Virus genome (UHGV): UHGV-0346325
Length of the DNA: 40,606 nucleotides
Strand: one strand, 5' to 3'
From: a virus
Shown here: piece by piece, positions 1 through 40,606 of the stretch
Numbering within the stretch: position 1 is the first letter of the stretch
Layout: each line of letters begins with the position of its first letter
Translations under genes and position numbers: made by a program
The notes under the pieces: model-generated
The model's input: only the letters and a program-made list of their open reading frames with translations
The model's database searches: none
What the model was told of the DNA's origin: nothing

Positions 1-35
1 TCGTAGTGTCATGAGTTCGAGTCTCGTTATTCCAG
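1..35 (+). tRNA. tRNA-Asn (anticodon GTT), 3' portion (cloverleaf positions 39-73)
   Basis: Manual folding gives anticodon-stem 3' strand TCGTA, T-arm ATGAG/TTCGAGT/CTCGT, acceptor 3' strand TATTCCA and discriminator G. It joins with 40569-40606 to give a perfect 73-nt cloverleaf. No CCA is encoded. Confidence 0.7.
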
Positions 36-130
36 TAAGTAGCTATGCTACTTAAATAAAAAAATCGTCAATAAGTCAAATGTAACTACCTTTACGATCA
101 GATGACGGTTAAGATTTTCCCTCCTATCTG

Positions 131-164
131 AGACTACACAAAAAGTGTAGTCTTCCTTTTATTT
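131..164 (+). terminator. Rho-independent terminator downstream of the tRNA
   Basis: 9-bp perfect stem agactacac/gtgtagtct with loop aaaaa, followed by tccttttattt. Confidence 0.7.
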
Positions 165-202
165 AATAAAATTGATATTATGAATGTAAAAGGAGGTTTA
201 TT

Positions 203-652
203 ATGGAGACTAACAATACATTTTCGAATCTATTAAAAAATTTCGACTATCCTAGAATCGAACCATCTATGAAATATGCGGAAAAACTAGAAACTGGTAG
301 TAATTGGCTTGGAGACATTAATAGAGAAAAGAAGCAGCTACAAGAACTGCAGAAGTTAGCAAATGAATCTACATTAAAAAGTGAAGAACTTTTAAAACAG
401 ATTGCTGAAAATACATCTTATATTAAAGACTTAGTCATGATAAATAGAGAAACTCAATTAAATACAGAAGAATTAACTTACGTTATGAAATCAATTTACA
501 AAGTTTCTAAGGCTGAGAATAAGCAAGAGGCTGATAGTTTGTTTTCTCAAGCAATTCAAGTCATAAATGATTCTGGAGAAGCTGCTGGAAATATATCTAA
601 TTTAACTTCTTTATTGCTTGGCATATATACATTTGTTTCTACAATAATATAA
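203..652 (+). CDS. hypothetical protein, 149 aa, coiled-coil-rich (moron)
   Basis: ORF with RBS AAAGGAGG 7 nt upstream of the start codon. It is bracketed by terminators at 131-164 and 656-683. Confidence 0.5.
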   Translation: METNNTFSNLLKNFDYPRIEPSMKYAEKLETGSNWLGDINREKKQLQELQKLANESTLKSEELLKQIAENTSYIKDLVMINRETQLNTEELTYVMKSIYKVSKAENKQEADSLFSQAIQVINDSGEAAGNISNLTSLLLGIYTFVSTII

Positions 653-655
653 CTT

Positions 656-683
656 GGACCTCAAATTATGAGGTCTTTTTTTA
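656..683 (+). terminator. Rho-independent terminator
   Basis: Stem gacctca/tgaggtc with loop aatta, followed by ttttttt. Confidence 0.75.
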
Positions 684-839
684 TACATAAGTAAAGGAGT
701 AAACTAATGCATATTGAAAAAATGAAATTATTAGATTTGAAAATATTGATCGAAGCTGATCTTATGTTGAAAGATATTGATAACTAACTAATATTAGAGT
801 ATCTTTAAATTAATAATAAGTGTATAGGAGTGATTACTA

Positions 840-1208
840 GTGGGATATTCGGATCTTAAAGAGTTGTTTAATGATGCTAAGAATCTTGCAACTGGAGCAA
901 ATGACTTACAACTGAAATCAGTGCTATTGGATATTCAAGATGCAGTATATAATTTGCAAGAAGAAAATAAGGATTTGAGAAATAAAATACATGAATTAGA
1001 AAATAATAATAATTTAGAAGCTGAGCTTGAATACAGAAATGGTGTATACACTAAAGGAAATGATGTTTTTTGTGCGGTGTGCTGGGATTCTTCTAAAAAA
1101 CTAGTACGAGCACGAAAAGTAAAGGAAGATGATTCTTCAAAAACAACAGTTTTTATATGTGACCTATGCAACAAATGGAGATTTTCTGACATTCCATGGG
1201 AAAAATAG
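840..1208 (+). CDS. hypothetical protein, 122 aa: N-terminal coiled coil plus C-terminal CxxC...CxxC zinc ribbon
   Basis: ORF. Cys pairs CAVC and CDLC near the C-terminus. Confidence 0.45.
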   Translation: MGYSDLKELFNDAKNLATGANDLQLKSVLLDIQDAVYNLQEENKDLRNKIHELENNNNLEAELEYRNGVYTKGNDVFCAVCWDSSKKLVRARKVKEDDSSKTTVFICDLCNKWRFSDIPWEK

Positions 1209-1254
1209 CAAAAACGAAACTCAACTTAAAAAGATTGTGAGGTGGTGTTAATGG

Positions 1255-2058
1255 ATGGCTAGAAAAAGAGATCCACGTCGTGACCAGGCTAAAGAAATTT
1301 GGTTAAAGTCAAATGGCAAAAAGGTTCTTAAAGAATTAGCTAATGAACTAAATGTTTCAGATTCCCAAATAAGAAAATGGAAATCGATAGATAAATGGGC
1401 TGATGAATTAAAAGGTAATGTTACCAATTCAAAAAGTAACGTTACCAACAAAGGTGGAGCGCCGCCTGGGAACAAAAATGCTATAGGTAACAAAGGCAAC
1501 AAGAACGCATCTCCACCAAAACAAAATAAAAACGCTGTGAAGACTGGTGAATTTGAAACTATATTCGCTGACTTGCTATCAGACGAAGAAAAGGACATCT
1601 ATTCTACTATGAATGATGATCCTTTTTTTGTTTTGGAGGAAGAAATAAGAATCCTGAAAATTCGTCAATACAGAATGCTTAAACGCATCAAAGATGCAGA
1701 GGCTGGCTTAAACGATGAAGAAGTTGAACGTTTGCAACAGCTTCGGAAAGTTAAAGAGCCATCGGTAATTGATGGGAAAATGGTTACTGTTAAGAGAGAA
1801 GTTTTAAAAGATGTACAAGTCACTCGTAAAACATTTAGAAAACTAGATGACATTTTGGCTATTGAGGAAGCATTGACAAGAATTAGCAATCAGTTAACAA
1901 AGGCTATTAAGCAACAGAGTGCTTTGTTAGCAAGTGATGCTAAATTACTACTATTGAAGGTTCAAGCTGAAAAAGTTAAAGCTAGTTTAGATGCTACAAA
2001 TGGAGACATGGATATGCCAGTTTTTATTGATGATATATCAGGTGATGAATATGAGTAA
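1255..2058 (+). CDS. terS: terminase small subunit
   Basis: N-terminal HTH-like segment (KVLKELANELNVSDSQIRKW). It sits immediately upstream of the terminase large subunit gene and overlaps its start by ATGA. RBS GAGGTGGTG. Confidence 0.6.
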   Translation: MARKRDPRRDQAKEIWLKSNGKKVLKELANELNVSDSQIRKWKSIDKWADELKGNVTNSKSNVTNKGGAPPGNKNAIGNKGNKNASPPKQNKNAVKTGEFETIFADLLSDEEKDIYSTMNDDPFFVLEEEIRILKIRQYRMLKRIKDAEAGLNDEEVERLQQLRKVKEPSVIDGKMVTVKREVLKDVQVTRKTFRKLDDILAIEEALTRISNQLTKAIKQQSALLASDAKLLLLKVQAEKVKASLDATNGDMDMPVFIDDISGDEYE

Positions 2059-39476: not shown

Positions 39477-39723
39477 TAGGGATGATAGAAATACCATGTT
39501 CGGCAAGCTGGTTAGCAAAAGATTGAGTAGTTCTAGCTATGAATTGTGTTTTTAAGAGAGCGTTAAATTCATCACTGTAATTGTCTAGTGATCTACGAAG
39601 TTCATTAAGGCAATCTTTTGGATTATCAGTCAGTTCGATTTCACAGATTGGGAAGTCTAAATCATCTAAAACATCTGAAACAGCAAGTGTCATCACTTCA
39701 TTAAAATTTACAGGGATTTTCAT
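39463..39723 (-). CDS. small acidic protein, 86 aa (net charge about -9), on the opposite strand inside the rightward operon
   Basis: RBS GGAGG on the minus strand (plus-strand cctcc at 39732). Has its own terminator. Confidence 0.5.
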   Translation of the reverse strand: MKIPVNFNEVMTLAVSDVLDDLDFPICEIELTDNPKDCLNELRRSLDNYSDEFNALLKTQFIARTTQSFANQLAEHGISIIPKDSE

Positions 39724-39797
39724 GATATCGCCTCCTAAAGTGACTATAACACAAAATAGAAACGATAAGATATTAATTTAGAGAAATGAGGTGCAAC

Positions 39798-39902
39798 ATG
39801 GGTAAGAAAAAATCAAAAATTAAAAAGAAAAAGCAATTGCTAACGGCACTCAAAATTCTAAAAAATAAAAAAAGTCGGAATCGCTCCGACCAACCACATT
39901 GA
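39798..39902 (+). CDS. possible 34-aa Lys-rich peptide (MGKKKSKIKKKKQLL...)
   Basis: RBS GAGGTG 5 nt upstream. The coding region is A-rich and also contains a minus-strand terminator-like hairpin (gtcgga/tccgac). Confidence 0.2.
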   Translation: MGKKKSKIKKKKQLLTALKILKNKKSRNRSDQPH

Positions 39903-39930
39903 TATTATAACATAAAAGGAGCGATTTAAC

Positions 39931-40347
39931 TTGATTCAATTGTTAAAAGAAGTTGATTTCAGTCAGACTAGAGCCAATGCGAGAGCCGTGTTGAAAAATT
40001 TTAGACGTTTGGACCGAATAGCTGGTCGTTCCTTAGTAGATGTTCGATCACCAATCATTACAGACATGCCAAAAGGTATAAAGCATGGCAACAAAGCAGA
40101 AGATGCGTTGATCCAGATGATTGATGTCGAAGTAGAGCGTGACGCAATCCTAACGGCTTTGATGTCACTAAGCATTATAAGTCGTCAAATTCTTCACTAC
40201 AGTTTTTGCGTGCAGGATCATTACTCTAATTACAAGATTGCTAGAGAAGTTGGCTATTCCGAAAGAAGTATTCAACGCATGAAATCAGAAGCTTTGATTG
40301 AATTCGCGGAAGCTTACCGCAATGGCAAAATAATTGCATATAAATAA
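39931..40347 (+). CDS. ArpU-family late-gene transcriptional activator
   Basis: 138 aa. The C-terminal sigma-70 region-4-like HTH (YKIAREVGYSERSIQRMKSEAL) is typical of ArpU/RinA-type regulators. It is the last gene before the tRNA/terS region. TTG start preceded by AAAGGAGCG. Confidence 0.55.
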   Translation: MIQLLKEVDFSQTRANARAVLKNFRRLDRIAGRSLVDVRSPIITDMPKGIKHGNKAEDALIQMIDVEVERDAILTALMSLSIISRQILHYSFCVQDHYSNYKIAREVGYSERSIQRMKSEALIEFAEAYRNGKIIAYK

Positions 40348-40350
40348 TTT

Positions 40351-40384
40351 TTGGCGGTTTTTTGGCGTAAAGTTGGCGGTTTTT
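40351..40384. repeat. direct repeats TTGGCGGTTTTT(T) x2 with an intervening TTGGCG
   Basis: Copies at 40351, 40362 and 40373, directly downstream of the arpU stop. Confidence 0.5.
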
Positions 40385-40412
40385 ATACGAATTTGAATGC
40401 TAATATAGTAAT

Positions 40413-40481
40413 ATCGAAAGTCAAAGAAATGGACACATTACACACTTTCTCGTTTAGTCATCGTTCACTTTGACTTTCGAT
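40413..40481. repeat. perfect 14-bp inverted repeat ATCGAAAGTCAAAG...CTTTGACTTTCGAT with 41-nt spacer
   Basis: Seen at 40413-40426 and 40468-40481. Confidence 0.5.
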
Positions 40482-40568
40482 GGTCACTTGCAGACTTACG
40501 TTCTCAATAAAATGAAGTGAGGTGAATAACCTCCTCTTTTTTCTACAAGTTTGCAAGGGACACGTTAA

Positions 40569-40606
40569 TGGAATATAGCTCAGTTGGTAGAGCATACGAC
40601 TGTTAA
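40569..40606 (+). tRNA. tRNA-Asn (anticodon GTT), 5' portion (positions 1-38), truncated by the window end
   Basis: Acceptor TGGAATA, then TA, D-arm GCTC/AGTTGGTA/GAGC, anticodon stem TACGA and loop CTGTTAA with GTT at positions 34-36. Confidence 0.7.

Follow-up and report, generated by a model that had tools for sequence, protein, structure and literature searches.

The window, by which we mean the whole 40,606-bp stretch of DNA analysed here, very probably represents the complete genome of a temperate siphophage of Enterococcus faecalis, recovered as an excised attP circle and opened arbitrarily inside the phage's own tRNA-Asn(GUU) gene. A preliminary description made from the sequence alone had read it as a circular or permuted genome linearised within a tRNA gene, and this reading is borne out by gapless colinearity with an integrated copy of the phage and by the length of that copy. 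The coordinates of the features discussed below are collected in Table 1.

Table 1. Positions of the features discussed in the text, in window coordinates
Feature	Position	Strand	Basis or remarks
tRNA-Asn(GTT), 3′ part	1..35	+	tRNA positions 39-73: anticodon stem 3′ strand, variable loop, T arm, acceptor 3′ strand
Terminator-like hairpin, 10 pairs, followed by T run	130..154	+	Downstream of tRNA; L005 9928-9952
Conserved ORF, 149 aa, phrog_10213	203..652	+	Function unassigned; anchor for the tRNA slot
ORF, 122 aa	840..1208	+	Function unassigned; ORF list, family look-ups
Terminase small subunit (terS)	1255..2058	+	PF10668, 77 bits; NF040601, 268 bits
Terminase large subunit (TerL), PBSX family (Terminase_3 and Terminase_3C)	2051..3349	+	PF04466, 158.7 bits; TIGR01547, 174.7 bits
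SPP1-type portal protein	3367..4905	+	PF05133 on identical L005 gene
attP core, 27 bp, ACTAAGCAAGTGCCGCCATGTGTCTGA	25423..25449	+	Overlap of two prophage-host junctions; L015 and L023 matches
Phage-borne 3′ 42 nt of host small SRP RNA gene (ffs)	25423..25464	+	Rfam RF00169
Tyrosine integrase (int), 378 aa	25525..26661	-	PF00589, 102.9 bits
ArpU-family late transcriptional regulator (arpU), 138 aa	39931..40347	+	NCBIfam TIGR01637, 130.3 bits, cut-off 43.1
arpU-tRNA intergenic region	40348..40568	+	Scan on identical locus, L005 9574-9601 and 9711-9725
tRNA-Asn(GTT), 5′ part	40569..40606	+	tRNA positions 1-38: acceptor 5′ strand, D arm, anticodon stem 5′ strand, whole loop CTGTTAA

Adjacency of the window ends

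The same phage is integrated in a 279,293-bp metagenome contig (ENA k141_4837), from which locus L005 was taken. L005 aligns with window positions 30809..40606 followed by 1..10652 at 100.000% identity and with 0 gaps, over 20,450 nt across the join, and each of the three segments sampled from k141_4837 matches the window at 100% identity. The prophage occupies positions 200028-240660 of the contig record, a span of 40,633 bp or 40,606 + 27. The integrated length is therefore that of the window plus one 27-bp att core, and the circle closes exactly. Against phage phiEf11, the joined 1,400 nt align as one block with 96.3% identity over 1,404 columns. An intact tRNA-Asn gene is present in phiEf11, phiFL1A and SEsuP-1, and also in 5 viral contigs, two chromosome-sized contigs (L008 and L014) and two shorter genome contigs (L007 and L013). 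The two tRNA halves thus form one uninterrupted gene in many independent assemblies, so a match by chance is excluded, and the window ends are adjacent in nature.

These data also bear on the idea that the ends are pieces of two tRNA-Asn genes, for instance in a chromosomal cluster, and that the window is a linear chromosomal slice. This idea has next to no chance of being correct, as it is already refuted by the alignments of phiEf11 and L005 across the join: the halves are fused as one gene in the identical integrated prophage and in many relatives. Furthermore, the window carries attP and neither attL nor attR, and no exact match to the tRNA exists among 185,579 species-representative genomes.

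A well-formed and conserved tRNA-Asn gene

When the ends are joined, or in circular mode, ARAGORN calls one 73-nt tRNA-Asn(gtt) at [40569,35], made up of positions 40569-40606 and 1-35. On the unjoined linear window it calls zero tRNAs, and an Rfam scan of the linear window returns nothing at gathering threshold, be it ROOL, GOLLD or any other Rfam family. The identical contiguous copy of the gene at L005 9761-9833 scores 69 bits with Rfam RF00005 (gathering score 29, E = 5.8e-13, model 1-71 full), and the cloverleaf is exactly the fold of minimum free energy predicted for the joined 73 nt. The end sequences quoted in the preliminary description were found where it had placed them, and its claim that they concatenate into a 73-nt tRNA-Asn holds. 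A base count likewise agrees with the break that it had placed between tRNA positions 38 and 39, at the 3′ edge of the anticodon loop. A search of the window with up to 3 mismatches tolerated finds a single occurrence of each half, against an expectation of zero by chance.

The stems comprise 7 bp (acceptor), 4 bp (D), 5 bp (anticodon) and 5 bp (T, including one G-U pair), and the 3′ end consists of a discriminator G without an encoded CCA. The gene reads TA at positions 8-9, AGTTGGTA in the D loop, CTGTTAA in the anticodon loop and TTCGAGT in the T loop, with acceptor and T arm TGGAATA...CATGAGTTCGAGTCTCGTTATTCCA. The nucleotides of the tertiary interactions (U8, A14, G18-G19, U33, T54-T55-C56 and A58) can all be read from it. 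The asparagine identity set established for Escherichia coli AsnRS consists of anticodon G34-U35-U36 and discriminator G73; according to the ARAGORN call, the window tRNA carries both elements.

Pooled over 13 homologues, identity is 98.1% in the tRNA, against 91.0% in the 220 nt upstream and 84.2% in the 165 nt downstream. Five sequence variants of the tRNA-Asn were found, and none of them alters a paired base: the changes lie at position 26, in the D loop and in the variable loop. The tRNA-Asn is therefore a well-formed gene under stronger conservation than its flanks. A text search of the literature for tRNA-Asn in E. faecalis prophages found nothing relevant.

Integration into the host SRP RNA gene

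An intact attP-like site beside int in mid-window had been proposed, and its 27-bp core is now located 75 bp beyond the int stop codon. Locus L015 is identical to the window (100%) down to 25423, and L023 is identical (100%) from 25449 downward. Homology with attL stops at window position 25423 and homology with attR begins at 25449, and the core between these positions is found at both junctions of the integrated copy. In integrated copies, host genes begin ~195 bp past the 3′ end of int. RF00169 matches L015 at 11198-11294, across the junction, with 51.9 bits (gathering 40). The phage thus integrates at the 3′ end of host ffs, the SRP RNA gene, which is rebuilt at the int-side junction; the tRNA-Asn of the phage is not involved in integration. 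The same int with the same host flank occurs in at least 8 places among the matches listed.

The preliminary description had also allowed for a phage-plasmid, that is, an element kept as an extrachromosomal circle. The circular attP form of the window and the existence of a second attP-form contig (L026) accord with this, although excised circles and permuted virion DNA yield the same assembly. We regard a phage-plasmid as highly improbable: a tyrosine integrase adjoins a defined attP, and copies that are near-identical, or identical in all three sampled segments, sit at the same chromosomal ffs site in several assemblies. In addition, family searches and precomputed Pfam matches covering the window genes contain no plasmid replication or partition genes.

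Gene neighbourhood and packaging

The tRNA had been placed between the late activator gene arpU and terS, and family matches support this placement (TIGR01637 for arpU, NF040601 for terS), with two small ORFs lying between the tRNA and terS. The tRNA slot ends ~168 nt upstream of the first of these, the 149-aa ORF. The intergenic region between arpU and the tRNA contains three TTGGCG repeats, a 14-bp inverted repeat and a weak sigma-70-like site (40382-40409). A terminator-like hairpin (40519-40533) followed by a T run lies upstream of the tRNA, 25 nt before the gene, and a promoter scan of the identical L005 locus found no consensus promoter between the two. The sites found in the scan were weak and at chance frequency (4 found, 3.2 expected).

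Both the PBSX-family TerL and the SPP1-type portal belong to pac-type families, a combination that is a correlate of headful packaging and not proof of it. From these genes, the phage DNA would be packaged by a headful (pac) mechanism. Such packaging would give circularly permuted virion DNA, which would be assembled as a circle without a natural end.

The point of opening

The preliminary description had treated the position of the break as significant, yet no marker was found there. There is no terminal repeat between the ends, whose longest common word is a low-complexity 11-mer, and neither tRNA half has a second copy in the window. In IMG/VR, an exact 51-mer taken from the start of the window hit a single UViG, which is 36.6 kb long and unrelated. 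The opening point is most likely arbitrary. The independent attP-form contig L026 (39,969 bp) is opened in the early region, related phage records are opened at other points, and the assembly of phage IME197, which carries tRNAs and an integrase, was 'randomly opened' according to its authors (PMC5026427). A random break would fall inside a 73-nt gene with a frequency of ~0.18% (72 of 40,606 positions). This low prior leaves some room for a non-random cause, but scanning many windows will turn up such cases.

One such cause would be a physical end of the virion DNA, with a pac or cos cleavage site inside the tRNA and the record opened at that terminus after its determination by experiment or computation. 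Packaging sites of many siphophages do lie in the general region that the tRNA occupies, ~1.2 kb before terS, and the small prior probability of a random opening inside it also speaks for such an end. We nevertheless consider this very unlikely. The ends have no terminal repeat or recognisable overhang, the terminase and portal families point to headful packaging with imprecise ends, and the related records and L026 are opened elsewhere. Moreover, unrelated tRNAs replace the cassette in phages with the same terminase genes, which is hard to square with an essential packaging site.

A break caused during assembly, by a repeat shared with host tRNAs or by a T/G polymorphism at window position 7, was rejected, because exactly abutting ends would need a contrived repeat length and because the 279-kb metagenome contig, assembled, to judge by its name (k141_...), with a final k-mer of 141 nt, passes straight through the tRNA gene.

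Proposed function in asparagine codon supply

In the scheme that we propose, the tRNA-Asn would be transcribed during lytic growth, within the leader of the ArpU-dependent late region. The transcript would be trimmed by RNase P of the host and by a nuclease acting at the 3′ end and would receive its CCA from the host enzyme, and host AsnRS would charge the tRNA through its GUU anticodon and G73. The phage tRNA could thereby supply extra Asn-decoding capacity for an Asn-rich phage proteome. Expression, processing and charging are predictions with indirect support from the strong conservation of the gene relative to its flanks and from the confinement of its variants to unpaired bases. Expression in particular is unproven, since a consensus promoter is absent directly upstream and a terminator-like hairpin precedes the gene.

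Compensation for Asn-rich late genes, as originally suggested, is weakly supported by codon counts. The share of asparagine codons is indeed 6.1-7.3% in the phage and 3.9% in 19 host genes from the flanks, which agrees with the suggestion. However, the enrichment extends to every phage gene class, so that late genes are not special, and lysine is enriched equally. The identity of the slot tRNA also varies: an Asn, Arg or Lys tRNA accompanies late modules that are 98.3-100% identical and have the same codon usage.

A variable tRNA slot

Across relatives, the arpU-terS slot holds one tRNA, with at least 10 different anticodons. Phage backbones that are the same or almost so carry tRNAs called as Trp, Asn, Arg(TCG), Arg(ACG), Lys, Pro, Ile, Glu, Asp and Cys. 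Trp is the commonest occupant, and 14 of the 75 informative loci have no tRNA. Several slot tRNAs have a common body (acceptor, D and T arms) and differ in the anticodon arm, for example the pairs Pro/Lys, Lys/Glu and Arg(TCG)/Arg(ACG).

Tentatively, the slot of Enterococcus prophages might be a dedicated, exchangeable single-tRNA cassette, and the window tRNA-Asn one allele of a diversifying system that is perhaps selected by host tRNA-targeting defences and not by codon usage, though we think this rather unlikely. Anticodon nucleases acting on Lys, Asn or Arg tRNAs have been described, as have phage tRNAs that evade such nucleases. The tRNA could, on this model, replace a host tRNA cleaved or depleted by an anticodon nuclease or by another tRNA-targeting defence or toxin, and cassette swaps would adapt related phages to hosts that differ in their defences. 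Counter-defence as the main role of the tRNA, in place of codon supply, is likewise rather unlikely. The highly variable identity of a single slot tRNA on near-identical backbones argues for it, as does the uncoupling of tRNA identity from the codon usage of the late genes. On the other hand, the anticodon loop CUGUUAA is canonical, without obvious escape changes, and PADLOC found no defence or anti-defence gene among the ORFs flanking the tRNA or among the cargo genes. The position of Trp as the commonest occupant and the loci empty of a tRNA also count against it.

Implications

The window can be used as a complete, closed phage genome. Annotation in linear mode loses its only tRNA, as both ARAGORN and Rfam are blank on the unjoined window, and pipelines should therefore try circular joins. 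It is routine for a temperate phage to carry a tRNA between its late activator and terminase genes, and the gene found here is present in published records and annotated in one. The wider interest is limited to the variability of the slot tRNA, whose free variation among near-identical phages is at odds with simple codon matching and makes counter-defence worth testing.

Comparison with known phages

The phage is a mosaic related to phiEf11, phiFL1, phiFL3 and IME197. Phage vB_EfaS_IME197 matches 78% of the first 12 kb of the window at 95.9% identity; its record was re-opened upstream of the terminase genes, whereas the window was left open inside the tRNA. The same tRNA-Asn, identical at 71-72 of 73 nt, is found in SEsuP-1 (MZ333458.1, 11761-11833, annotated), phiEf11 (GQ452243.1) and phiFL1A-C (GQ478081-83), in the same place, ~225 nt past arpU and before the terminase genes. 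These phages carry G at variable-loop position 45, where the window has T, and their tRNA is intact because the records were opened elsewhere, whereas it is split in the window. In the GenBank records of phiEf11 and phiFL1A the tRNA-Asn is present and unannotated.

One relative, L070, has a full-length ROOL RNA beside the tRNA in its arpU-terS slot. This pairing agrees with published reports that ROOL and GOLLD are associated with phage tRNAs (PMC5737381, PMC12286853), while the window itself has neither RNA. As in other temperate phages with the 3′ end of a host small RNA gene in their attP, the window attP rebuilds its target upon integration, although the classical targets are tRNA or tmRNA genes and this phage uses the small SRP RNA gene ffs. 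The tRNA-Asn gene and the circular, randomly opened assembly are both already known from related phages.

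A tRNA-Asn gene divided between the window ends

Read as a linear sequence, the window yields no tRNA with ARAGORN and no match in Rfam. When the ends are joined, or the window is read as a circle, a single 73-nt tRNA-Asn(gtt) is returned at [40569,35]. The preliminary description had made this observation from bases that are indeed present at both window ends, and it is correct, including the stems (acceptor, 7 bp; D, 4 bp; anticodon, 5 bp; T, 5 bp with one G-U pair) and the discriminator G. The cloverleaf is the minimum-free-energy fold of the joined 73 nt, and an identical contiguous copy scores 69 bits with the Rfam tRNA model (gathering score 29). 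By manual count, the 38 bases at the window end are tRNA positions 1-38, and the break separates the final base of the anticodon loop from the base that opens the 3′ strand of its stem. Neither half has a second copy elsewhere in the window at up to three mismatches.

Features of the window around the tRNA-Asn gene and the attachment site
Feature	Coordinates	Strand	Support
ArpU (late transcriptional regulator)	39931-40347		TIGR01637, 130 bits
arpU-tRNA spacer	40348-40568		
tRNA-Asn	40569-40606 + 1-35		ARAGORN, Rfam
Small ORF of unknown function	203-652		phrog_10213
Small ORF of unknown function	840-1208		
TerS	1255-2058		PF10668, NF040601
TerL, PBSX family	2051-3349		PF04466, TIGR01547
Portal, SPP1 type	3367-4905		PF05133
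DUF6056 membrane protein, 439 aa	23344-24663	minus	PF19528, 381 bits
3′ 42 nt of ffs	25423-25464	plus	
Integrase	25525-26661	minus	PF00589
Ltp-type surface lipoprotein	27577-28464	minus	PF07553

The window as an excised phage circle

Both window ends match, as a mosaic, temperate siphophages of Enterococcus faecalis (phiEf11, phiFL1A-C, phiFL3A/B, IME197, EFC-1 and SEsuP-1), and among deposited phages none covers at least 80% of either end query. In phiFL1A, record positions 14631 and 14632 correspond to window bases 40606 and 1; against phiEf11, the 1,400 nt spanning the join form one alignment block of 1,404 columns at 96.3% identity.

The strongest evidence on the identity of the window is an integrated copy of the same phage on a 279,293-bp metagenome contig (ENA ERZ27228159 k141_4837), reached by protein look-ups. 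One of its segments (L005) matches window 30809..40606 + 1..10652 at 100.000% identity over 20,450 nt with zero gaps, and carries the tRNA-Asn uninterrupted at 9761-9833. Identity reaches down to window 25423 in the integrase-side segment (L015) and begins at 25449 in the far-side segment (L023); the two thus overlap by 27 bp (25423-25449), and this overlap is the att core. The prophage spans 200028-240660 in the record, with which the coordinates of all three segments agree. Since its 40,633 bp equal 40,606 + 27, the window is exactly the excised circle, and no base is lost or repeated where its ends meet. The proposal of a circular phage opened within its own tRNA is thus supported, and we hold it with high confidence.

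The integration target is the host's small SRP RNA gene (ffs), in its 3′ part. The window provides the 3′ 42 nt of ffs, the first 27 of which are the att core, so that integration splits ffs and then rebuilds it at the int-side junction, where RF00169 matches L015 11198-11294 (51.9 bits, gathering 40; Rfam). The int-side host flank opens with a dCMP-deaminase gene. Within a few kb of the other junction lie glycosyltransferase genes that, from their Pfam matches, look like a cell-wall polysaccharide locus.

The gene order is a standard temperate-phage layout: the portal gene leads into head, tail and lysis genes, cargo lies between lysin and attP, and the integrase is followed by a repressor/Cro region and replication genes. 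Adjoining attP, the gene for the DUF6056 protein also matches, less strongly, a PHROG whose annotation is GtrB, a glycosyltransferase of O-antigen conversion; the gene is a candidate for lysogenic conversion and could alter a surface polysaccharide. The Ltp-type lipoprotein, encoded between int and the repressor, belongs to PHROG families annotated as superinfection exclusion.

An independent metagenome contig (L026; ENA ERZ23872191 NODE_378, 39,969 bp) carries a closely related phage (99.8% identity across 17.7 kb) in the excised attP form, so this lineage also occurs in other samples as free circles or virion DNA.

Position of the break

The window bears no mark at the break point (terminal redundancy, duplicated half or insertion), and the longest repeat common to both ends is a low-complexity 11-mer. 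A random cut would fall inside the tRNA gene with a chance of ∼0.18%, which is low yet unremarkable across a scan of many windows. The break in L026 lies in the early region, not in the tRNA, records of deposited relatives begin near the terminase genes or at other places, and the IME197 assembly was 'randomly opened' according to its authors (PMC5026427). TerL and the portal belong to families linked to headful packaging, which would yield permuted DNA that assembles as a circle. That the break is instead a real packaging end is very improbable: phages with the same terminase genes carry unrelated tRNAs at this place, which speaks against an essential packaging site inside the gene. Most likely, the break point is arbitrary.

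Conservation and predicted expression of the tRNA-Asn

Across 13 homologous loci, identity to the window copy is 98.1% in the tRNA-Asn, as against 91.0% in the 220 nt upstream and 84.2% in the 165 nt downstream, and differences among its five sequence variants are confined to unpaired positions. This pattern supports purifying selection on what would be a working tRNA. No exact match, with two common polymorphisms allowed, was found in 185,579 species-representative genomes; the gene therefore does not duplicate a standard chromosomal tRNA gene.

Terminator-like hairpins flank the gene on both sides, and no consensus promoter was found directly upstream. Transcription would probably occur by read-through from the arpU-proximal region or from a late promoter. 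The spacer between arpU and the tRNA has a 14-bp inverted repeat (ATCGAAAGTCAAAG ... CTTTGACTTTCGAT) and, immediately behind arpU, three TTGGCG repeats. Its conservation extends to within 5 nt of the tRNA, including in phiFL3A, whose cassette is a different one, and the spacer may be regulatory or contain a late promoter.

Codon supply and the variable tRNA slot

Compensation for Asn-rich late genes, as originally proposed, holds only in part. Asn makes up 6.7% of late-gene codons and 3.9% of those in 19 flanking host genes, but early genes (6.1%) and cargo and lysogeny genes (7.3%) are also raised, and so is Lys (late 8.9%, early 10.6%, cargo and lysogeny 10.1%; host 6.0%). The Asn excess is not peculiar to late genes; it follows from how AT-rich the phage is as a whole. 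Moreover, Asn, Arg(TCG) and Lys(TTT) tRNAs all occupy this place in prophages whose late modules are 98.3-100% identical over 10.4 kb and do not differ in codon usage, and late-gene codon content does not explain which tRNA is present. General supplementation of Asn decoding is the most economical predicted role.

The arpU-terS slot (equivalent to window 40564-46) holds a single tRNA whose identity varies greatly between related prophages (loci L001-L014 and L031-L113). It was surveyed from ArpU relatives at 90 loci in phage records, viral contigs, genomes and metagenomes, 75 of them informative. It held Trp(CCA) at 27 loci (one with an extra Asp(GTC)), Asn(GTT) at 19, Arg(TCG) at eight, Lys(TTT) at seven, Pro(TGG) at four (two with Ile(GAT)), and Glu(TTC), Arg(ACG) and a tRNA with an 8-nt anticodon loop at one each; 14 loci had no tRNA. 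A further locus, in E. pallens, gave Cys(GCA) by ARAGORN only. The Trp, Lys, Arg, Glu, Asp, Pro, Ile and 8-nt-loop tRNAs all exceed the Rfam threshold (43-76 bits), the weakest being the Arg-type scaffold, with 43 bits and poor pairing in the anticodon stem.

Slot identity differs even between ArpU alleles 97-100% identical and between near-identical late modules. Asn, Lys and Arg cassettes have a common hairpin just 3′ of the tRNA, which therefore places an exchange boundary at the tRNA 3′ end. Against a background body identity of 55-69% for unrelated tRNA pairs, Pro(TGG) and Lys(TTT) (L095/L098/L105 versus L097/L102/L106) are 83% identical in their bodies but match at 5/17 anticodon-arm positions, on one C1-G72/A73 scaffold. 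Another scaffold is common to Lys(TTT), Glu(TTC) and the 8-nt-loop variant (L045/L048/L062 versus L058 and L070), Glu(TTC) differing from the commonest Lys(TTT) sequence at two bases, one in the anticodon; on a third, Arg(TCG) and Arg(ACG) (L047 versus L063) have bodies 100% identical. The pattern is suggestive of a tRNA cassette that is exchanged and diversified under pressure from host defences directed at tRNAs, a reading we consider unlikely.

Other RNAs also occur in the slot of relatives, although none is in the window: in one, a full-length ROOL RNA just upstream of the tRNA (L070 1686-2264; RF03087, 267.8 bits), and in another, an rli28-like sRNA (L075 4072-4251; 147.7 bits) and a RatA-type antitoxin RNA (L075 4295-4381; 50.2 bits, gathering 49). 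The phage ROOL-tRNA association has already been published (PMC5737381, PMC12286853).

Comparison with known phages

The split tRNA is a linearisation artefact over an already known kind of phage-borne tRNA. The same tRNA-Asn gene lies intact in phiEf11, phiFL1A-C and SEsuP-1, and is annotated in the last of these; arbitrary opening is routine for circular assemblies of phages of the phiEf11, phiFL1 and SEsuP-1 type.
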